Source of the DNA: a bacterium
GTDB taxonomy: Bacteria > Patescibacteriota > Minisyncoccia > Phycocordibacterales > UBA6899
DNA length: 64,000 nt
Direction: 5' to 3'
Assembly (NCBI GenBank): GCA_043736515.1
Contig: JAYTCK010000013.1
Location: 12,214-76,213 of the forward strand
Positions 1 to 60,171 of this stretch are shown piece by piece (position 1 is the first letter of the stretch; each line of letters begins with the position of its first letter). The position numbers and the translations under genes were made by a program. Below the pieces are notes generated by a model. It was not told where the DNA came from and ran no database searches. It saw nothing but the letters and a program-made list of their open reading frames with translations.

Positions 1-2883
1 AGTACCCATCCACACCGCACTTGGTGCCACCACCGTCTCGTCCCCATCGAGCGTTGTAGAATTAATGCTGCGATCAAGCGTTGCGAGTTTGCATAATATA
101 ATCTGACATGAATAACGAATATCTTTAATAGTATCAACCCCCCACCCAGCAATCTGCACCACCTGCATTCCCGGAGGCGGCACCCATGCATCTATGGTTG
201 TGTGCATATCTCTCGCATTCGAAAGCAATGAATCCTTGAGCACGTTCGGAACATCACGCTCATTATCCGCAGGCTCACTCCATGTGCCACCTTGACCACG
301 GAGGAAGTATTCGAGTGCGGCTGCTGTGCTCACGGTCGTACTTGCAAGAGCATGTAATTCGCTTAACTCGCTCACGCTTTCATCAAAAATAATTACCGGA
401 GATTGCACCGTAGTGAAATAGTGTGCAGATGGAAGCAGATTGTACGCACTCGGCATATGCTCACCAAGCATTCGCGCTTCTTGTTTCGTGAGAATAATTC
501 CTGCACCAAGATTTGCTTCATCACCATGCAGCAAGCCGGCAATCGCCTTGGGTGTTCCTAACTGTGGTGCGGCAACCATAATAACAGTATCAATCTTCTT
601 TTCGAATGGATCATGATTTTCTGCCAATTTTGCAAGGAAGTATTTGGCGAGCAAGCCGCCATTTGAATGTGTGACGATGGTCACCTTGCCTGTATCGGAA
701 GTGCCCGCAAGGCGGTGAAGTTCCTGAATGAGAAATGGGGTTGTGGTGCTTTGGAGATATGAAACATATGCACCTGTTTTGTTGCCACTCTTTAATAATT
801 CAGGAAAATCAAGACGCCAGTCATACGGCAAAGCTTTCCATTCATTAATCATTCCGGCACCCACAACATCTTGCTTCATAAAATTAATAAAGTTTTTATA
901 GACGTTCACGCCATAGACTTCGTCAAGCACACTTTTTTCAGGTAATCCATCCAATGTGACAATATCAGTATTAATAGATGTGCCGTTGGGGTTGAGATAC
1001 AGTTGAGTGTTGTCACCGAATGTCGGAGGATCCCAGATTTGCGTTGCGGGAGAGGTGCTTGCGCGGAACAGTCGTGACGCCTCAAGTCCCGGCAAGAATG
1101 CAACATTCGAATATCCTGTTTTAAAGGAAAATTGATTTTCCGTGGCAGTTGGTATTGTTGTCGTTGCACCACCGACAGCGGCAGTGAAGGAGTAGTTGTA
1201 TGTGTGTTTTGCAAACGTGAGTGGATGATAATAACTGAAGAGTTCACCATTACGATAGTCCCCGTCTTTGAGTGTTGTTGATGCAGTTGTTGTGTCTCGA
1301 GTGAGCGCCATGATTGTGGGGATCGATGATACCGGATTTGCAACCTCAAACACAGGAATAACCGTAGCGGTTATATTCTCCGGTGCACGATTCCCTGCGT
1401 CAGTATAAATAACAGAAAACGTGAAATGCGTTTTCCCTGCAGTGCCCTTGTGATCCTGAATCCCGTCATCTTCATAGAGACCTTTGAGAGTGTCGGTGGC
1501 AAAGGAAAGTCTGGGTACTTGAATGACAAGAGCTTTCCACCCATCCTTCACCGTCCATGGGAGGTTGTCCTGTCCGATCGTGTACATGCGAGGTGTATCA
1601 CAAAAACCATCCGTGTTTGAATCATTGCATCCCTCTGGTGGTGTATCGAACGTATCCCAGTAATTGCCACCATTTGGATTAGCTATATGAAACACGTTTC
1701 CCACACCGGCGTAATTCACGGCGTGCGCCCCATTATTCAAAAAATTATTATTATAGACTTGATTCCCTATTGCAGGGGAGAAAATCATAAGCCCCGTGTT
1801 TTGATTGTCTCGTATCGTATTCTCGTGCACCACATTGTTGGATGAAGTAAAGAAGAGCACTCCTTGGTATGTACGAGAAATGTTGTTGGACAGGAAACTG
1901 TTGTTGTTTGAATTAAAGAGAAGTATCCCTTGATATACATCGGAAACACTATTGGATATAAAACGATTATTATTCGAACCAGAGTAGAGCAGGACTCCTT
2001 GATGTCCTGGGCGTCTTTCGAGAGTTCCTAGGTTAATCGCATTGTTTTCAAATAAATTATCAAGAGAACTGAAGAGCGCAAATCCTTGATTGCGATAGAT
2101 TACCGGAACAGTGAGCAACACGGTGTTCCCTGTTATTGTGTTCGCACTTGAAGAGTAAAAGACTATTGCCTGATAGTCATTGTTAGTGAAGTTATTATTC
2201 ACGATATGGTTGCTTAATGAACTGAATGCACTCACGCCATAAGAAAAATTACTAATCTGGAGGTTCTTGAGGGTGACATTTGTTCTGCCATTCAAATACA
2301 CCCCAGAGCCGGTATGGGATCCCGAGAGCGTGAAATTATTTCCATCAAGTGTGATGTTGTCGGAATCGATCTGGACGGTTTCGGAGAGATTTTGTGTAAG
2401 GGTGCAGATTTTTGTAATGTTGTCCCATATTCCCACAACAATACAATCTCCGCCCGTTGCATCGTCGCGGATGAACTTGGTGCTTTTGTGCGGTTGGATG
2501 AAGATGACATGGGGAATTAGGATATCTTGCGTGTATGAATATATACCCCTTTCGTCAGTATTGAATTGAGTGAGATTGTGATAGCTATCTTCGTATTTGT
2601 AGTATGTGGTGTTTGGAAGAAAGCCACCCATAGAGATGGTGGTCGCAGTGGAAGAGGAAGTCGTCGCATCGATCATGAGTGTCACAATGTTTGGAACAGA
2701 TTCGAGGCGGAGATCTATAAGTGCGGAACTTTGGAGGGTGATGTTGAGATAGTCACTGTCGGTGATGACAAAGTGTGTGCCCTCATCTTGGATCGTGCCC
2801 GGGGGGTTGATTGTTTCGGCGGAAGCAACACCGTGCATGAGCAAAGAAAGAAAGATCGACAGGGTGAAAATAATGCCACGCAT
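1..2883 (-). CDS. Large secreted protein, N-terminus at 2883, running off the window start (>960 aa). Signal peptide MRGIIFTLSIFLSLLMHGVASA, then right-handed parallel beta-helix repeats (NNNFTNNDYQAIVFYSS..., SNSVSDVYQGILLFNSNNNSF...), then a C-terminal alpha/beta-hydrolase (lipase/LCAT/PGAP1-like) region with nucleophile elbow VTIVTHSNGG
   Basis: Manual reverse-complement translation from the CAT at 2881-2883. The frame stayed open at spot checks 2761-2883, 1441-1500 and 961-1020. It is not in the ORF track because it is edge-truncated. Domain calls are from motif recognition only. Confidence 0.6.
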   Translation of the reverse strand, partial: MRGIIFTLSIFLSLLMHGVASAETINPPGTIQDEGTHFVITDSDYLNITLQSSALIDLRLESVPNIVTLMIDATTSSSTATTISMGGFLPNTTYYKYEDSYHNLTQFNTDERGIYSYTQDILIPHVIFIQPHKSTKFIRDDATGGDCIVVGIWDNITKICTLTQNLSETVQIDSDNITLDGNNFTLSGSHTGSGVYLNGRTNVTLKNLQISNFSYGVSAFSSLSNHIVNNNFTNNDYQAIVFYSSSANTITGNTVLLTVPVIYRNQGFALFSSLDNLFENNAINLGTLERRPGHQGVLLYSGSNNNRFISNSVSDVYQGILLFNSNNNSFLSNNISRTYQGVLFFTSSNNVVHENTIRDNQNTGLMIFSPAIGNQVYNNNFLNNGAHAVNYAGVGNVFHIANPNGGNYWDTFDTPPEGCNDSNTDGFCDTPRMYTIGQDNLPWTVKDGWKALVIQVPRLSFATDTLKGLYEDDGIQDHKGTAGKTHFTFSVIYTDAGNRAPENITATVIPVFEVANPVSSIPTIMALTRDTTTASTTLKDGDYRNGELFSYYHPLTFAKHTYNYSFTAAVGGATTTIPTATENQFSFKTGYSNVAFLPGLEASRLFRASTSPATQIWDPPTFGDNTQLYLNPNGTSINTDIVTLDGLPEKSVLDEVYGVNVYKNFINFMKQDVVGAGMINEWKALPYDWRLDFPELLKSGNKTGAYVSYLQSTTTPFLIQELHRLAGTSDTGKVTIVTHSNGGLLAKYFLAKLAENHDPFEKKIDTVIMVAAPQLGTPKAIAGLLHGDEANLGAGIILTKQEARMLGEHMPSAYNLLPSAHYFTTVQSPVIIFDESVSELSELHALASTTVSTAAALEYFLRGQGGTWSEPADNERDVPNVLKDSLLSNARDMHTTIDAWVPPPGMQVVQIAGWGVDTIKDIRYSCQIILCKLATLDRSINSTTLDGDETVVAPSAVWMGT

Positions 2884-3334
2884 AAAATAGTGAGCGGATA
2901 CTTGATAAAATGTATCCTTTAAGCTACTCAGAATTTACTGAAACGCAAGGAGTGGGATTTTCTATACTTTGCTCAGGACGCAGTACGACTCCTCAGGGGC
3001 AGTGCTTCAGGGAGTCCGAACCAGATGTTACAAATGCTACACCCAAAGCCCCATTCTGGAGGCAATCTGAGCGAGCAATTTTAAAATCGAAATGGCTTAA
3101 AATATAGGGATTTGACGAAAAAACGAGGGTGTACAATTAAGGTATATGAATACAAACAAAATGCCGCGATTCTCGGCACGTAAAAAGAACAAGGATCTCA
3201 TGACGCTTCTCCTTTCGACCGCCTCATTCCAAAATGAGGTCAAGGCACTCCGCAAACAATTCGGAATTAAGGAGGGGGGAAATAGCACATCTGAAGAACA
3301 CGAAAAATGAGAACGACTCTTTTGGGATAGTGCA

Positions 3335-4141
3335 ATGGATCAGAAGGCAGAGAGTGGGGATGGGCACACGAAGAGTGACGAGTACTTCAGGGCACTGAAC
3401 GACCTCACGAGAAGATATCACCTCCCAGGAAATTTCGATCGCCATACTCGATGTTACGTTGAAATGGGAATGATCTCCTGGCCAGTCAACAGCTTCGACA
3501 TAACGCCAGTGGGATTCCCTGCTCGTTCGTTTAGGTTGAACATCTATCTCCTCCTGCGTAATCCCTTCTATTATGGTGAATTTGAATATCCGATGGGGAG
3601 TGGTAATTGGTATCCCGGCAAACAAACACCCATTATCACCAAGGAACTTTTCGATAGAGTGCAGTCATCTCTTCAAGATCACTACATTCCAAAAACGGAA
3701 AGCAGGGAGTTCGCCTTCACGAAGCTCATTAAATGCGGGTACTGCGAGAGTGGCATCACCGCCGACGAAAAATTCAAGAGACTCAAAGACGGAGGAACAA
3801 ATCGGCATGTCTATTATATGTGCACCAAGGGCAAGGGTGTGGAGTGCAAGAATGCGCCGATCAATGAGAAAGACCTAATCGAAGAATTGACTGGGCTACT
3901 CGACACCATCGACCTCGACGAGATCGGAATGAGGTCAAAGATCGAGGACGAAATGGCCCGCTATAATAAATTCCGTATCGGCGTGCTCGGACTGAAAACG
4001 AAAGAGCGCAATACCGATGTCGATGTGCGCAACTACGCAAAGTACCTGCTCAAAGATGGCACGCTAACCGAGAAGCGCGAGCTACTGGTATGCCTCAAGA
4101 GTCAGCTCATTCTGAAAGATCGAAAAGTATCACTGCAATAG
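3335..4141 (+). pseudogene. C-terminal fragment of a large serine recombinase. It has the recombinase-domain tail (NPFYYGEFEY), a zinc ribbon (KCGYCESGITADE ... YYMCTKGKGVECKN) and a coiled coil. The N-terminal resolvase catalytic domain is absent
   Basis: ORF-track protein of 268 aa. No catalytic-domain sequence upstream at 3100-3334, which holds only a short unrelated ORF. Adjacent to tRNA-Gly and a duplicated tRNA fragment. Confidence 0.55.
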
Positions 4142-4157
4142 TCGAACAAAACAGAAA

Positions 4158-4190
4158 AACCGCTTCATGTTGAAGCGGTTTTTCTGTTCA
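4158..4190. terminator. Hairpin AAAAACCGCTTCA-TGT-TGAAGCGGTTTTT, bidirectional intrinsic-terminator-like
   Basis: Perfect 13-bp stem flanked by A/T runs, just after the recombinase-fragment stop. Confidence 0.5.
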
Positions 4191-4263
4191 TGCCAGCCTT
4201 GACGCATGCGATTCTCGACTGTGTGAGTCGCGATGCATCCTAGTCACTTGACTTAGCCCTGTC

Positions 4264-4337
4264 TGGTGCGGGATGGGAGAATCGAACTCCCACCAGAAGT
4301 TTGGAAAACTCCTATTCTACCATTAAACTAATCCCGC
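4264..4337 (-). tRNA. tRNA-Gly(UCC), CCA encoded
   Basis: Reverse complement GCGGGATTAGTTTAATGGTAGAATAGGAGTTTTCCAAACTTCTGGTGGGAGTTCGATTCTCCCATCCCGCACCA. Acceptor GCGGGAT/ATCCCGC, anticodon loop TTTCCAA, T-arm GGGAG-TTCGATT-CTCCC. Confidence 0.85.
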
Positions 4338-4385
4338 ATTATTGTCTTTTGCCTCACGATTCTCGAATCGAACCTCTTACAGAGG

Positions 4386-4474
4386 CTGTATACCTTTTGG
4401 ATTTTTCAGAAAAAACCTCAAAAGGTCTTGCGCTCTGGCTCCCGCAAAGCCGGGTTCCCAAATGCCAGAGCTCA
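4386..4474 (+). repeat. tRNA-associated structured repeat, copy A (~90 nt). Followed at 4475-4523 by an exact duplicate of the first 49 nt of tRNA-Gly(UCC)
   Basis: CTGTATACCTTTTGGATTTTTCAGAAAAAACCTCAAAAGGTCTTGCGCTCTGGCTCCCGCAAAGCCGGGTTCCCAAATGCCAGAGCTCA aligns with copies at 26783-26870 and 30203-30289. Compensatory changes in two stems. Confidence 0.7.
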
Positions 4475-4620
4475 CCCACCAGAAGTTTGGAAAACTCCTA
4501 TTCTACCATTAAACTAATCCCGCTTGCTTATTGTGAGACTTTCGTATCCTAGCAAATTGACAACAAGGTGGCAACGGGGAAAAATGAGTAGAGATGCACT
4601 TTTTATAATAAGGATGGGTC

Positions 4621-5433
4621 ATGCCAATGAAGACAAATCCGCTTTTGGATCCCGTGCGTGCAAAGAATATGTACCGGCTTATACAGGGAATTTTTGATTT
4701 TTGGAAGCTTTGTGTCAGTCACCGCTTACTTTTACTCGGAGTAGACCGGGCGACATGGGTAATGATGCAGCGAGAAAAAATGCTCCCACCGCGAGACGAT
4801 CTCGCATCCCGCATCGCGGCGTTAATCCGAATTTACCACATGAGTGGAGATATTTACCCGCGGGACTCTGATCTCGCCGCAAAGTGGATTGAGAGGCCAA
4901 TTTTTGTTGAACCCTTTTTGGGGGTTAATCCGCGCCAATTCATGCTTATGTATGTAACGAGAGATGGGGTAGAAGAACTACAGGTTATTATTGAGTATCT
5001 CAACAATTGTTTTACTCGTTGGGATTGCCTTCGCGATCAGCATGGAAGACTGCTGCGCTGTAATGACGAGTTGCGCATGAGTGAAGAGCCCATCGACACT
5101 CTTGCACAAATGATTCTTCGAATTCAAAACAGCTGGAAATTACCCGACTCGATATTTGAACACATCATTGGAGTAAGCATGGCCGAGGTCGCTGATGTGG
5201 CAATTGGGAAAAATATACCGCCATTGAAAGTGGCTACTCAGATGAGGAGAATTGCTTGTATTGACATCGCACTGTGGTGCAATGTAGAGGACGATGAAAA
5301 AATATCTTTGTGGATGCTTTCGTTAAACAGTCATCCCCTTTTTTGCGGAGCCCCGCCGTATCATCTCCTCTCTTCACAAAACCCGAGCGTTGCAAGGGTT
5401 GTCTATACTTACCTTCGCAATATTTCACCGTAG
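4621..5433 (+). CDS. Hypothetical protein. The N-terminal ~130 aa resemble the DUF2384 (Xre/MbcA/ParS-type antitoxin toxin-binding) domain. The C-terminal ~140 aa are unassigned
   Basis: Motif pattern LLLLGVDRATW...DDLASRIAALIRIYHMSGDIY...AAKWIERPIFVEPFLGVNPRQFM...GVEELQVIIEYL. No RES-domain partner seen. Confidence 0.35.
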   Translation: MPMKTNPLLDPVRAKNMYRLIQGIFDFWKLCVSHRLLLLGVDRATWVMMQREKMLPPRDDLASRIAALIRIYHMSGDIYPRDSDLAAKWIERPIFVEPFLGVNPRQFMLMYVTRDGVEELQVIIEYLNNCFTRWDCLRDQHGRLLRCNDELRMSEEPIDTLAQMILRIQNSWKLPDSIFEHIIGVSMAEVADVAIGKNIPPLKVATQMRRIACIDIALWCNVEDDEKISLWMLSLNSHPLFCGAPPYHLLSSQNPSVARVVYTYLRNISP

Positions 5434-16508: not shown

Positions 16509-16513
16509 GAGTA

Positions 16514-16642
16514 GCGAACCCCAAGGAAACGGTAGTTGCCATTCCAGTCATCGTTCCGCCAGTTGAGGTTGAGGTTGCGCTTCGAGCCATTCCTGTACAG
16601 ATACGGTACGTTCCGATTGCCGTTCACCTTCGCGACCGAACC
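16514..16642 (-). repeat. DGR template repeat (TR), 129 bp
   Basis: Identical to VR 16990-17118 except at 15 positions. All 15 are T on the + strand (A on the coding/minus strand) in TR, against C/A/G in VR. Read in frame, the TR encodes Asn (AAC) at the variable positions. Confidence 0.85.
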
Positions 16643-16903
16643 CTGTGCAGTAGGTCATCCTCACCACCACCCCTTGAACTTTCACAGACGGCGCCATCCG
16701 CGAATACATTCTCGAGATTGTATCGTATTTGTGATCTTTTTATCACCAATCCTACTGCGCCAACTTTTTCAATTTTTTAACAATCTTATGCAACTCTCCC
16801 TGCAATCGTAACCGCAAGAATTCTCGGCATAAGCGTTGCGGACAAATTATTCACAGCCGTAACCGTGAATTTTTCATTTATCATGATTACTATATCAAAA
16901 AAA

Positions 16904-16974: not shown

Positions 16975-17571
16975 TCAGAGTGCGGAGTTGCGAACCCCAA
17001 GGAAACGGTAGTCGCCAAACCAGTCAGCGTCCCGCCAGCCGAGGCTGAGGTCGCGCTCCGAGCCATCCCTGCACAGATACGGTACGTCCCGACTGCCGTC
17101 CACCTTCGCGACCGAACCGAGAGCAACGATCGGGAACTTACGTTGCTCTTCGGGGTTTGCAGCGGCGGAGGCGAGCAAGTGTTCGATCTTCCCGGGTTGA
17201 TAGCCCTCGGCGATAATCAGGCGTTCGGCTTCGTCCGCTGAGACGACACGATCGAAGTGGAAAAGCTTGCGCTCGACCACCACGATACCAGAGCCGACGA
17301 CGGAAAAGCGTTTGGTGGTGATGTCGCTGTTGGTCCAGTCGTAGCGTCCGGCGGCGATCATTTGTTCGAGGGTGAGGGCGTAGTTGATGGCGAGGCGGGT
17401 GCCGCCACTCACTTCTTGTGGCGGATTGAGTCCCGCAAGGAACTTCTTCACATGCGTGAGGATATTCCCCTCCGAGAGACTCTTGACGTCGGCCGGAGTC
17501 CAGCCGTTACGCTCGAGTGCGTGATCAAGCTCCGCTGCTTGACGGGAAGACATAACAAACTTGTCGCTCAT
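16975..17571 (-). CDS. DGR target protein (198 aa) with a C-terminal variable repeat (VR 16990-17118)
   Basis: C-terminus ...DVPYLCRDGSERDLSLGWRDADWFGDYRFLGVRNSAL is encoded by the VR. Only 4 codons follow the VR before the stop. Confidence 0.8.
   Translation of the reverse strand: MSDKFVMSSRQAAELDHALERNGWTPADVKSLSEGNILTHVKKFLAGLNPPQEVSGGTRLAINYALTLEQMIAAGRYDWTNSDITTKRFSVVGSGIVVVERKLFHFDRVVSADEAERLIIAEGYQPGKIEHLLASAAANPEEQRKFPIVALGSVAKVDGSRDVPYLCRDGSERDLSLGWRDADWFGDYRFLGVRNSAL
16990..17118 (-). repeat. DGR variable repeat (VR)
   Basis: See the TR entry. Adenine-specific TR/VR mismatch pattern. Confidence 0.85.
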
Positions 17572-26464: not shown

Positions 26465-26585
26465 ATGCGCCGGGAATTTCTCGCCTTACAGGCGCAGTAC
26501 CCCTTTCCCATTTCTGAGGATTCAGAAATCCTCAGAAATATGGGAGAAGGGCTTCGAATCCCGACGAAAGGCACGCAGGTGCCTT

Positions 26586-26712: not shown

Positions 26713-26782
26713 TATATTTACTACCTTGTGACACACGCTCATTTCGCACAAGCACTGAGTGTTAGCCGTCTCCGTACCGGAG

Positions 26783-26870
26783 CTGTACACCTTTTGGATT
26801 TTTCGGAAAAAACCTCAAAAGGTCTTGCGGTGTGGCTCCCATAGGAATGGGTTCCCTTTTGCCACACCTC
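26783..26870 (+). repeat. tRNA-associated structured repeat, copy B. Followed at 26871-26883 by a duplicate of the first 13 nt of tRNA-Pro. A D-loop fragment (TGTTAGCCGT) lies on the other side at 26760-26769
   Basis: CTGTACACCTTTTGGATTTTTCGGAAAAAACCTCAAAAGGTCTTGCGGTGTGGCTCCCATAGGAATGGGTTCCCTTTTGCCACACCTC. Confidence 0.7.
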
Positions 26871-26943
26871 ACACCACGCCCCGTTAAACAACAAAACGCT
26901 CATCTGAGCGTTTTGAGTATAGCAGATAGTGAAACAAAGACAA

Positions 26944-30150: not shown

Positions 30151-30202
30151 GCGGGTATGGTTTAGTGGTAGAATACGTCCTTGCCAAGGATGAGACGGGA
30201 GT
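30151..30202 (+). pseudogene. Exact duplicate of the first 52 nt of tRNA-Gly(GCC), ending in the T-stem. Interrupted by repeat copy C
   Basis: GCGGGTATGGTTTAGTGGTAGAATACGTCCTTGCCAAGGATGAGACGGGAGT is identical to 30345-30396. Confidence 0.75.
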
Positions 30203-30289
30203 GAGGTGTGGCTACTGGGAACCCATTCTGATGGGGCCACACCGCAAGACCTTTTGAGGTTTTTTCTGAAAAATCCAAAAGGTGTACAG
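30203..30289 (-). repeat. tRNA-associated structured repeat, copy C. Inverse orientation on the + strand, but in the same orientation relative to its tRNA as copies A and B
   Basis: Reverse complement CTGTACACCTTTTGGATTTTTCAGAAAAAACCTCAAAAGGTCTTGCGGTGTGGCCCCATCAGAATGGGTTCCCAGTAGCCACACCTC. Confidence 0.7.
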
Positions 30290-30344
30290 GTCCTGTAGGG
30301 ACCGATTCTCCCTAAATGAGGAATCGCGGTACAATATAAAAAAT

Positions 30345-30459: not shown

Positions 30460-30706
30460 TGCGGGTAAGAAGTGCCCCACGGCACTTCGTGGGAGAATCG
30501 AAGCCGTTCTCCCATAATTTTAAGCGACAACCGCTGTCGTTTAAAATTGGGAAACGGGTACTGCGCCTGTAAGGCGAGATTCTCATATTTAAGTACCTGC
30601 GGAAGTAATCGGCGATTCTCCCTAGTTATGCCTGCTTAATGCGTAGTTGGCGATTCTTTGATTTTTTGTCAACTGCGCGCTATAGTTGGCCTATTATATA
30701 GACGAC

Positions 30707-38432: not shown

Positions 38433-38502
38433 GGTCGTTCCTCGGCTTTGAGAGGTGCGACCTTGAAGAAGCTGGCCGTTTTTTGCGGTACTGCTCGATA
38501 AG

Positions 38503-38562
38503 CGGCAGCCAACTTCTCCGAGGTACGACCTCCCAAGGCTGAGGTCGGACCTCAAGCTGCCT
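38503..38562. repeat. Palindromic REP-like repeat, family copy 1. A degenerate half copy precedes it at 38433-38462
   Basis: GCGGCAGCCAACTTCTCCGAGGTACGACCTCCCAAGGCTGAGGTCGGACCTCAAGCTGCC. Other copies at 59577-59630, 60111-60171 and in-CDS at 59441-59484. Confidence 0.8.
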
Positions 38563-58784: not shown

Positions 58785-59552
58785 ATGGCAACAGATTTTA
58801 ACAACCTTCCTCAAGCAATAAAAGACTTACTTCTCTCCGAGAAGCTTGTTGATGACGTTGAAGGTATCGCTAAGCATCATGGGCTACGCCCTGAGGAATA
58901 TGGCTTGCTCCTTCGTGCGACTACTCAACTCCTTGAGGGCAACATGCCCGCAACAGAATACATGGCTTCTCTTGTTGGTGAATTAGATCTCTCTCGTGAA
59001 AAAGCTGCGCTTGTGGCTCAGGACATTAATCAGAATATTTTTAACCCTGTCAAAGAAGAGCTGAAGCAAGTTCATGCAGTAAATGGAGCGAAAGATGGGG
59101 TTACACCACCACAACCTCTCCCTAAGGTCGCATCGAGTTCACACCTCTCCTCAAATCCTGTTGCTACAGCAACACCGGCACCTCTTCCCAAGCTTTCCGA
59201 AATTGCAGCCGCCTACACCGGCAAAACGGAAAAGCCAATGCCGCCCCAAAGTCCTCCGTTATCTGCCCCCTCCCAAAGTATTTTTGAGCAGAAAATGGGG
59301 GGGACATTTCGCATGAAAAGCGATACCACAAGTCACGCCGGGAGTGTGCCGCCACAGGGGGCAGCTAACTTCACCACAGGAGTACTTCCAAATTTCAGTA
59401 CTCGAGGACTCGATGAAATTTCTGGTCGCTCCGAGGTACGACCACCCAAAGCTGAGGTCGGACCCCAGTCTGCCCCCACATCGTCTAGTGCTGTTATGCC
59501 GAACCCCGGCACGTCATCCAAGGTTGACCCGTACCGAGAAGCGACAGGCTAA
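58785..59552 (+). CDS. Hypothetical Pro/Ser-rich protein. Its C-terminus is encoded by a REP-like repeat copy
   Basis: ORF only. The repeat at 59441-59484 encodes ...RSEVRPPKAEVGPQSA. Confidence 0.35.
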   Translation: MATDFNNLPQAIKDLLLSEKLVDDVEGIAKHHGLRPEEYGLLLRATTQLLEGNMPATEYMASLVGELDLSREKAALVAQDINQNIFNPVKEELKQVHAVNGAKDGVTPPQPLPKVASSSHLSSNPVATATPAPLPKLSEIAAAYTGKTEKPMPPQSPPLSAPSQSIFEQKMGGTFRMKSDTTSHAGSVPPQGAANFTTGVLPNFSTRGLDEISGRSEVRPPKAEVGPQSAPTSSSAVMPNPGTSSKVDPYREATG

Positions 59553-59576
59553 TAAAATGTGCAGAGAGTATCAGTT

Positions 59577-59630
59577 CAGCCAACTCCTTCGAGGTCCGAC
59601 CTTTCAAAGCCAAGGTCGGACCTCAGGCTG
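59577..59630. repeat. Palindromic REP-like repeat, family copy (variant)
   Basis: CAGCCAACTCCTTCGAGGTCCGACCTTTCAAAGCCAAGGTCGGACCTCAGGCTG. Confidence 0.75.
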
Positions 59631-59663
59631 ATCAGTCACTGCTAACAACCACTCCCTACTTAT

Positions 59664-60110: not shown

Positions 60111-60171
60111 GCGGCAGCCAGCTTCTCCGAGGTCCGACCTCCCAAAGCTGAGGTCGGACCTCGGGCTGCCG
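60111..60171. repeat. Palindromic REP-like repeat, family copy
   Basis: GCGGCAGCCAGCTTCTCCGAGGTCCGACCTCCCAAAGCTGAGGTCGGACCTCGGGCTGCCG. Confidence 0.8.

Follow-up and report, generated by a model that had tools for sequence, protein, structure and literature searches.

A structured repeat with a gene-restoring insertion layout at tRNA genes of Patescibacteriota, and its independence from an adjacent serine recombinase remnant

Two kinds of apparently mobile DNA flank one tRNA gene in a member of the Patescibacteriota (class Minisyncoccia, order Phycocordibacterales, UBA6899), which raises the question of whether one of them brought in the other. The stretch analyzed, referred to below as the window, comprises 64,000 nucleotides (nt) of contig JAYTCK010000013.1 (positions 12,214 to 76,213; GenBank assembly GCA_043736515.1). 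Its tRNA-Gly(UCC) gene is followed on the 3' side by the remnant of a large serine recombinase gene and preceded on the 5' side by a small noncoding element, here named E, that adjoins a truncated duplicate of the same tRNA gene. An earlier examination of the DNA letters without database searches (the sequence-only reading) raised the possibility that a recombinase once mobilized such elements, or that an integrative element decayed at this tRNA gene. The current analysis revealed that the recombinase did not move E and that the stump and E are independent events on the 3' and 5' sides of the tRNA gene. E itself is a previously undescribed structured repeat of clade-restricted occurrence, and its insertions have an unusual layout that restores the gene.

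Organization of the tRNA-Gly(UCC) locus

The locus occupies positions 4264 to 4574 on the minus strand. In the direction of tRNA transcription, continuing into the adjacent recombinase remnant, it comprises the following features (comparison loci are denoted by L and a number):

4546-4574, minus strand: promoter-like site TTGCCA-17-TAGGAT upstream of the tRNA fragment, with homology to the promoter region that precedes tRNA-Gly(UCC) in E-free alleles (alignment with the E-free L120 and with L119)
4475-4523, minus strand: exact copy of tRNA-Gly(UCC) positions 1 to 49, a truncated copy of the ancestral gene (100% identical over 49 nt to 4289-4337)
4373-4475, minus strand: element E, copy A, 103 nt (covariance model, 112.6 bits; bounded by 5'-GTGAG and the foot of the third hairpin)
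4357-4372, minus strand: resumption of the interrupted tRNA copy as the T-loop TTCGATTC, followed directly by its inverted complement GAGAATCG (from the sequence)
4338-4356, minus strand: AT-rich spacer TGAGGCAAAAGACAATAAT, 19 nt, directly upstream of the intact tRNA (from the sequence)
4264-4337, minus strand: intact tRNA-Gly(UCC) with encoded CCA (ARAGORN; Rfam tRNA model, 67.2 bits)
4142-4263, no strand assigned: conserved end of the recombinase island, with a terminator hairpin at 4153-4189 and motifs common to the same interval of L115 (three-way alignment)
3500-4141, plus strand: C-terminal stump of a large serine recombinase (open reading frame [ORF] 3335-4141, with homology starting near 3500; Pfam and tblastn)

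A short leader separates the promoter-like site (4574-4546) from the tRNA fragment (4523-4475). The 49-nt duplicate was correctly recognized in the sequence-only reading; it represents the 5' part of tRNA-Gly(UCC), is scored by Rfam as a partial, sub-threshold tRNA (22.8 bits), and has in common with E the G at 4475, the first base of the element. The element described in that reading at 4386-4474 is present, with the boundaries extended, so that the earlier interval is the core of 4373-4475. At the junction that follows (4357-4372), the tRNA bases AG (or GAG) have been lost, and the gap between E and the complete tRNA-Gly(UCC) is 35 nt. The spacer contains a −10-like box and a weak promoter-like match (TCGAGA-17-AATAAT) and, judging from the common ACAATAA, appears to duplicate the end of the native leader in diverged form; comparable spacers are found at 28 other tRNA-linked copies of E. 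The same junction is found in the relative L010, and T-loop pieces in a similar direct-plus-inverted arrangement were observed in L029, L035, and L099 as well as at copy C of the window. On the 3' side of the intact tRNA, 122 nt that include the terminator hairpin lead to the stop codon of the recombinase ORF, which lies on the plus strand and is convergent with the tRNA.

The tRNA fragment is adjoined by a 270-aa ORF (4621-5433) with a sub-threshold match to an Xre-like antitoxin helix-turn-helix domain. This ORF is partly conserved in the syntenic loci L010 and L119 and absent from L122.

Relatives of the locus were found via the neighboring phosphomannomutase gene. In two of them, L120 and L122, tRNA-Gly(UCC) lies beside the same phosphomannomutase gene with neither E nor the repeat; these are E-free alleles of the kind whose flanks had been suggested for comparison. 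Because the window sequence upstream of the 49-nt fragment can be aligned with the promoter region that precedes the tRNA in L120, this fragment is the remnant of the ancestral gene in its original position, and the working gene downstream of E must therefore be read through from the old promoter.

The recombinase stump and its island

The ORF at 3335-4141 is indeed a C-terminal remnant of a large serine recombinase: it matches the Pfam domains PF07508 (Recombinase, in part) and PF13408 (Zn_ribbon_recom) above the cutoffs and does not match PF00239 (Resolvase). The family has 4,675 relatives; among the 120 best, identity ranges from 67 to 96%, and most of the best are 417 to 446 aa long with all three domains. 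In tblastn, three full-length relatives of 420 to 440 aa align only from residues ∼204, 226, or 241 to the C terminus, corresponding to window positions 3500, 3509, or 3539 to 4138. Given that the C-terminal part alone aligns, the ORF represents a stump. No N-terminal recombinase remnant is detectable upstream of it in the window, and the first ∼55 to 68 codons of the ORF are unrelated read-through.

Intact relatives occupy comparable positions in other genomes, convergent with a tRNA gene:

Window: recombinase stop to 3' end of tRNA-Gly(UCC), convergent, 123 nt
L115: intact relative to 3' end of tRNA-Gly(CCC), convergent, 124 nt
L124/L125: intact relative to 3' end of tRNA-Arg(GCG), convergent, 115 nt
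L112/L113: intact relative and tRNA-Gly(CCC), convergent, with one Abi-like gene between
L116/L117: intact relative and tRNA-Arg(UCU), convergent, with two genes between, including a ThsB-TIR gene

The stretch from the recombinase end to the tRNA, including the end of each gene, shows a mean column identity of 81% between the window and L115, despite the different isoacceptors. This conservation, along with the intact relatives beside tRNA 3' ends, indicates that the family marks islands that abut tRNA 3' ends and that the window holds a decayed one. No ORF of >147 aa is found in any frame in positions 1 to 3300, in a genome that is otherwise gene-dense, and this segment is probably the decayed body of the island. 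A second copy of the tRNA 3' end that would mark the far end of the island is not present in the window. Decay of an integrative element at this tRNA, the other possibility raised at the outset, thus holds for the recombinase stump, whose intact relatives are convergent with tRNA genes at similar distances, and does not hold for E and the 49-nt repeat.

Among the recombinase loci (L112-L117 and L123-L127), this unusually conserved family is seen beside defense-type cargo, namely, an Abi-like gene, ThsB-TIR, and a type I restriction system. The recombinase of L115 is encoded near a diversity-generating retroelement (reverse transcriptase plus bAvd).

Absence of a link between the recombinase and E

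That the recombinase or its island mobilized E, the 49-nt repeat being the scar of its attachment site, is hardly credible. Only proximity speaks for it, with 123 nt between the end of the stump and the tRNA and about 230 nt between that end and E. With respect to the tRNA, the island is on the 3' side, whereas E and the repeat are found on the 5' side. A tblastn search with the stump over 111 E loci (725 kb) gave one weak match, 3.6 kb from E, and none in the 46 genome loci; conversely, 11 loci that encode intact close relatives of the recombinase gave no match to the covariance model of E. In L112 and L124, where the recombinase adjoins a tRNA, the upstream region has neither E nor the repeat, and the same is true of L115 over the 46 nt that its contig holds. 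L010, which is syntenic with the window (phosphomannomutase 74% identical), has E at the same tRNA-Gly(UCC) site without a recombinase and encodes an unrelated 317-aa protein in place of the stump. Strand exchange by large serine recombinases takes place at a 2-bp crossover, without a long direct repeat being left behind, whereas the insert with copy A is bracketed by a 49-nt exact direct repeat. Thus, the wider sample shows no association between E and recombinase genes, the outcome that the sequence-only reading itself had named as speaking against its suggestion. As far as this recombinase family is concerned, that reading was right to note none near the other two copies.

Structure of element E

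The other two copies in the window are likewise associated with tRNA genes:

26768-26872, minus strand: element E, copy B, splitting a decayed copy of tRNA-Pro(UGG) after position 13, 56 nt upstream of the intact gene
30201-30304, plus strand: element E, copy C, after an exact 51- to 53-nt copy of the 5' part of tRNA-Gly(GCC), 41 nt upstream of the intact gene

The three copies can be aligned from GTGAG to the foot of the third hairpin and show compensatory differences in the stems. A covariance model of E, built from 49 copies, assigns scores of 112.6, 118.9, and 113.4 bits to copies A, B, and C, respectively, and the core motif pattern has three matches in the window and none in 100 shuffles.

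E is a 102-nt noncoding unit of three hairpins; copy A consists of GTGAG, hairpin P1 (with the internal loop GGGAA and the inner stem P1b), GCAAG, hairpin P2 (15 bp with a bulged A), GTATACAG, and hairpin P3 (5 bp with a GUA loop). P1 begins at base 2 and the unit terminates with P3, so that there are strand-specific hairpins at both ends. The single-stranded motifs GUGAG, GGGAA, GCAAG, GUGUACAG, and the GUA loop are nearly invariant, and the 5' end is GUGAG (or GUGAA or GUGGG) in all 49 aligned copies. In this alignment, 97% of the cells at the stem positions are paired, compared with 82% in shuffles and 31 to 52% in slid controls, and compensatory double changes are seen at 23 of the 34 pairs of the consensus structure. 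Since G-U pairs outnumber A-C pairs in the stems (46 versus 13), the folding strand is the tRNA-sense strand of copy A.

E contains no ORF longer than 31 aa and has no terminal inverted repeats, the best match between the 5' end and the reverse-complemented 3' end averaging 6.1 of 20. Searches against Rfam 15 yielded no family for E at the gathering score, where tRNA alone was matched, or at E values of up to 10.

Distribution of element E

E was found at 46 loci in species-representative genomes and 65 loci in metagenomes, with 113 distinct (nonredundant) copies. The hosts are Paceibacterota, Lloydbacteria, or Parcubacteria-type assemblies, some of them labeled Saccharibacteria; the sole exception, L033 (Sedimenticolaceae), is a chance match. 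No matches were obtained in viral contigs, phage records, or plasmid records. E is therefore a discrete, strand-specifically folded, multicopy unit restricted to one clade of the candidate phyla radiation (CPR). No earlier description was found in the literature, the nearest being that of group I introns in tRNA genes of Patescibacteria.

E avoids coding DNA: just 19 of 97 cores fall within long open stretches, which make up 78% of the DNA and almost all of which lie on the strand opposite. Clustering of ORFs within 3 to 4 kb of E at the 111 loci revealed only syntenic housekeeping genes and no recurrent mobility gene; since no gene recurs beside E, any mobilizing enzyme would act in trans. 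An IS200-like gene is located near E in one lineage (L005, L083, and L104), where it is flanked by a palindrome family other than E; its assignment to PF01797 was confirmed for the homologous copy in L001, and the window has no such gene. In L001 (4580-7014), two tRNA-Ser(GGA) genes 2.3 kb apart bracket the IS200-like transposase gene, with E upstream of the first one only; the flanks of the two tRNA genes agree over 23 nt upstream and about 55 nt downstream.

Preference for tRNA genes and duplication of the target

An intact same-strand tRNA gene is found 22 to 100 nt (median, 40 nt) downstream of 30 of the 113 copies of E, whereas 0.8% would be expected (p = 1e-36). The tRNA-linked copies cover 12 anticodons. 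In the same tRNA, the site of E varies between genomes: it follows position 13 or about 38 to 40 in tRNA-Pro(UGG), 17 or 38 in tRNA-Pro(GGG), and 4 or 49 to 51 in tRNA-Gly(CCC). This variation indicates that the insertions were independent, and E has evidently been inserted at many different sites, among which tRNA genes are strongly preferred. Neither transfer-messenger RNA nor RNase P genes were detected as targets, and no Rfam family was matched by the conserved sequence that E splits in L006 and L024.

The tRNA-linked copies have a common layout. In every one, a copy of the tRNA from approximately position 1 to the insertion point lies directly upstream of GTGAG. Downstream of E, the tRNA resumes 2 to 5 bases further on and continues for 8 to 25 nt; in tRNA-Gly genes this piece is often followed by its own inverted complement, and next come an AT-rich spacer of ∼20 nt and the complete gene. 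A flank repeat that ends exactly at GTGAG was found at 30 of the 106 testable copies, with lengths from 13 to >50 nt; none is detectable at about 70% of the copies. The same repeat-E layout occurs at the start of a protein-coding gene, msrA (L017), and in antisense insertions (L042 and L078) it is the tRNA 3' end that has been duplicated. Thus, E and not the gene sets the polarity of the duplication: the piece of the target that lies 5' of E is duplicated 3' of E, whichever way E faces the gene.

The 5' flank of E favors GG (73% G at position −2 and 57% G at position −1) and often has 1 to 3 bases in common with GTG. There is no guide-like pairing between E and its flanks (self, 6.4; cross, 6.6). 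Arrays of tRNA fragments plus E and copies of E nested in E were observed in L002, L023, L027, and L035.

Several further arrangements involve E. Another small insert of ∼55 nt (CGACCTAAAATTTMACGAC...GGAAGTRCTC..GTG) is nested in E copies and tRNA stumps of L023 (7190-7510), L027 (6200-6260), L035 (4170-4230), and L119 (2810-3010), and its remnants adjoin the stump in L010. In five genomes (L003, L004, L014, L025, and L027), E is found at the same place, the very end of a conserved ORF of ∼72 codons (...YEFGxxW|G), for which it supplies the stop codon, and is followed by partial or tandem E copies.

A probable explanation with two separate events

The joint explanation that fits these data, a decayed recombinase island on the 3' side of tRNA-Gly(UCC) and a separate copy-in of E on the 5' side, is on balance probable, if only narrowly. 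On the 3' side, an integrative island of the large-serine-recombinase family that is common in Paceibacteria would once have adjoined the tRNA 3' end and then decayed, with the recombinase losing its catalytic half and the 3.3 kb beyond it being left with no long ORF. On the 5' side, a copy of E would have entered the tRNA gene after position 49, so that the ancestral gene would now be a 49-nt stump behind the native promoter, and the complete tRNA, 35 nt past E, would be read through from that promoter.

As for the copy-in itself, E may have been copied from a defined single-stranded intermediate (RNA or single-stranded DNA [ssDNA]) supplied in trans and joined at its 5' G to a G-rich site via 1 to 3 nt of microhomology. 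Short template switches of low processivity could then have copied 8 to 25 nt of the target and sometimes an inverted piece before a jump back upstream, and only the products that regenerate the whole tRNA would survive. The constant ends of E, the short run of target after it, the inverted pieces, and the upstream jump resemble serial template switches. Because a single-copy tRNA is essential, only the rebuilding products can persist; for both orientations, this would account for repeats that begin at the tRNA boundary or slightly outside it.

Several observations weigh against this explanation. The template-switch steps are read solely from the anatomy of the junctions. No enzyme able to move E was found, with nothing recurring beside it in the 111 loci, and a published survey reported group II introns to be absent from complete Patescibacteria genomes (PMC13011429). 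At copy A, the 49-nt repeat is 100% identical, yet the two copies of the leader are poorly alike, so that a later conversion or re-insertion event is needed. Copies of E in the same genome are 0.76 identical, the same as copies in different genomes; a recent burst would not be expected to give this pattern, and a resident functional RNA would account for it equally well. The orientation of E relative to neighboring protein-coding genes is near random, and its bias is not significant. The decayed tRNA-Gly(UCC) stump of L119 has the same end position (48) and leads via a spacer to the intact gene, with no E at the junction; accordingly, either E was lost from this locus or the duplication may arise independently of E. 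Finally, the copies of E were gathered with a pattern that needs three conserved motifs, so that decayed copies are under-sampled.

E contrasts with its surroundings in conservation: it has 0 to 2 broken pairs of 34 where the neighboring tRNA stump is 10 to 36% diverged from the live tRNA, so that the fold is retained next to a decaying stump. Either selection preserves E in place or its copies overwrite each other; concerted evolution inside genomes is not seen overall. A role of E in the precursor transcript (processing, insulation, or self-cleavage at its 5' edge) remains a live alternative, or an addition, to pure selfishness. In its most far-reaching form, the copy-in model would make E a new class of small structured mobile element in CPR bacteria, in which a defined RNA or ssDNA is copied into tRNA and other genes at G-rich sites, the duplication of the target on the 5' side rebuilds the gene that was hit ("self-healing"), and the fold is then kept by selection, perhaps via precursor cleavage or insulation. 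This reading is put forward tentatively, as a possibility with the greater weight of probability against it.

Alternative explanations for E

An unlikely but substantial alternative is that E is mainly a resident functional RNA module (processing, insulating, or self-cleaving) of pre-tRNA leaders and untranslated regions that rarely spreads, with the stumps being local tandem duplications into which E fell or in which it was retained. The invariant single-stranded motifs, the compensatory changes in the stems, and the fold preserved beside a decaying stump would all be expected of such a module, as would its position on the tRNA-sense strand behind the native promoter, its avoidance of coding DNA, and within-genome copies as diverged as those of different genomes; the L119 stump with no E at its junction can be explained in the same way. 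However, the end of the stump coincides in every case exactly with the first base of E, and the interrupted copy invariably breaks off 8 to 25 nt past E, which would not be expected of independent events. Insertions are also found in other E copies, in msrA, and in antisense orientation; neither E nor the repeat is present in the empty alleles; the orientation relative to protein-coding genes is at most weakly biased; and no ribozyme or regulatory family of Rfam was matched.

It appears distinctly improbable that E is a retroelement resembling the short interspersed elements (SINEs), inserted by target-primed reverse transcription with a reverse transcriptase (RT) encoded elsewhere and flanked by long target-site duplications. 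A duplication of variable length (13 to >50 nt), a constant full-length 5' end with 1 to 3 nt of microhomology, an RNA-like strand-specific fold, and cotranscription with an RNA gene of high expression, comparable to that of R2 in rRNA genes, would fit this mechanism, and RTs of diversity-generating retroelements do occur in these bacteria (L115). On the other hand, no A-rich tail or 5'-truncated copies were seen, the 8 to 25 nt of local target between E and the second repeat do not conform to a simple staggered-nick model, and it is difficult to see how an RNA end would account for the antisense insertions, whose duplications extend to the 3' boundary of the tRNA. Moreover, no RT is linked to E, and group II introns were not reported in the survey of complete Patescibacteria genomes mentioned above.

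Integrases usually duplicate the 3' part of a tRNA gene. It is very improbable that E and the repeat represent a miniature site-specific element of the tyrosine-integrase type that carries a replacement piece of tRNA: a tRNA direct repeat does bracket a short insert and the working gene is restored, but the repeat is the 5' part (positions 1 to 49), every copy would need a different piece (12 anticodons, plus msrA and E itself) that matches the local tRNA at every site, no integrase is found inside or beside an insert of 186 nt whose longest E ORF is 31 aa, and the junctions are untidy, with inverted pieces. The possibility that E is an intron, group II-like or protein-spliced, in a functional interrupted gene can practically be discarded: the 5' GUGAG resembles the group II GUGYG and some flanks read CAG|GUGAG, but the interrupted copies lack the tRNA 3' part, have a truncated 3' exon, and are decaying, the intact gene is always downstream, and a 102-nt unit shows neither a domain V-like Rfam match nor copy-specific pairing with its flanks. 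An intron was also considered at a sigma-factor-like fragment (L020) and at a small protein gene (L003 and others) and was rejected, as the upstream frames are broken or E merely supplies a stop codon.

Other repeats in the window

Weak relatives of E, designated E2, are found in the window at 26480-26565 (minus strand, 27.6 bits) and 30465-30578 (plus strand, 22.8 bits), after the terminators of tRNA-Pro and tRNA-Gly(GCC), respectively. Each E2 is preceded by an inverted tRNA 3' end, such that the tRNA end, the terminator, and the inverted copy form a palindrome of ∼27 bp, and a 23-nt hairpin (AGAAGTGCC..GGCACTTCGT) divides the inverted acceptor and T-arm. The E2-type layout is also seen in L035, L046, L119, and L122.

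A separate repeat family, D1, consists of GAGGTCCGACCTC-type palindromes at 38502-38561, 59415-59474, 59573-59632, and 60111-60170. A palindrome of this type lies directly upstream of the IS200-like (Y1 transposase-like) gene in L005, identically in L083 and L104, and the D1 palindromes may be the REP-like (repetitive extragenic palindromic) sequences of a RAYT, a REP-associated tyrosine transposase. The window also contains a 141-nt direct repeat (16509-16649 and 16985-17125) with 87% identity between copies that are 476 nt apart.

Implications

CPR bacteria have tiny genomes with single-copy tRNA genes, in which an element that prefers tRNA genes should be lethal. E represents one way around this lethality, as every surviving insertion comes with a rebuilt gene. 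If the mechanism is intrinsic to E, this would be a mode of insertion that has not been described for small bacterial repeats and would supply these lineages with tRNA gene fragments, tandem arrays, and tRNA genes that look split. With its conserved fold, E is also a candidate new RNA family that might be catalytic or bind protein, in organisms with few known noncoding RNAs. In practical terms, the stumps and E copies confuse tRNA annotation, and the recombinase family at tRNA 3' ends marks defense gene islands in these genomes.

Comparison with known systems

The systems that resemble one or the other part of this locus differ from it in specific ways. The small repeats of other bacteria (REP and bacterial interspersed mosaic elements [BIME], ERIC, BOX, Correia/NEMIS, and RUP) are, similarly to E, noncoding, geneless, multicopy units of ∼100 nt that are rich in hairpins, mostly intergenic, and often cotranscribed. 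E is distinguished from them by three hairpins with invariant joining motifs, the absence of terminal inverted repeats, the targeting of tRNA genes, and a long variable target duplication that brackets E and restores the gene. In the REP/BIME system with RAYT, the unit is a 20- to 40-nt palindrome with a conserved GTAG that flanks the RAYT gene, compared with 102 nt, three hairpins, and a 5' GTGAG in E. A miniature inverted-repeat transposable element would have the terminal inverted repeats that E lacks, and the repeats at E are neither short nor of fixed length. The palindrome-associated transposable elements (PATE) of the IS200/IS605 type also have strand-specific end hairpins; they use a fixed tetra- or pentanucleotide target without duplication, whereas E shows just the GG preference at positions −2 and −1 and long duplications.

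Group II introns start with GUGYG; E starts with the similar GUGAG (or GUGAA or GUGGG), in which the fourth base is a purine, not a pyrimidine. The six domains with domain V, the exon-binding pairing, and the complete exons of these introns are all missing from E. The retroelements R2, which inserts into 28S rRNA genes, and LINE-1/Alu are similar to E in the use of expressed RNA genes as targets, the dependence on a host promoter, the variable duplication, and the 5' microhomology. In contrast, E has no known RT partner, no tail, and no 5' truncation, and is followed by extra local and inverted pieces of the target. Such short direct and inverted templated segments, along with microhomology and duplications beside hairpin-forming DNA, are characteristic of fork stalling and template switching (FoSTeS), microhomology-mediated break-induced replication (MMBIR), and the tandem inversion duplications of Salmonella. 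Those are sporadic rearrangements, whereas E is a defined 102-nt unit with constant ends that has been inserted repeatedly.

Islands and prophages integrated at tRNA genes are similar in their target and in a repeat that keeps the gene working, which fits the recombinase island; E differs from them in that its repeat is the 5' part of the gene, its 186-nt insert lacks an integrase, and each site has a different piece of tRNA. In comparison with the phiC31-type large serine recombinases, the ORF at 3335-4141 has lost the catalytic resolvase domain and has no link to E, while it retains the recombinase and zinc-ribbon domains and sits where its intact relatives sit.

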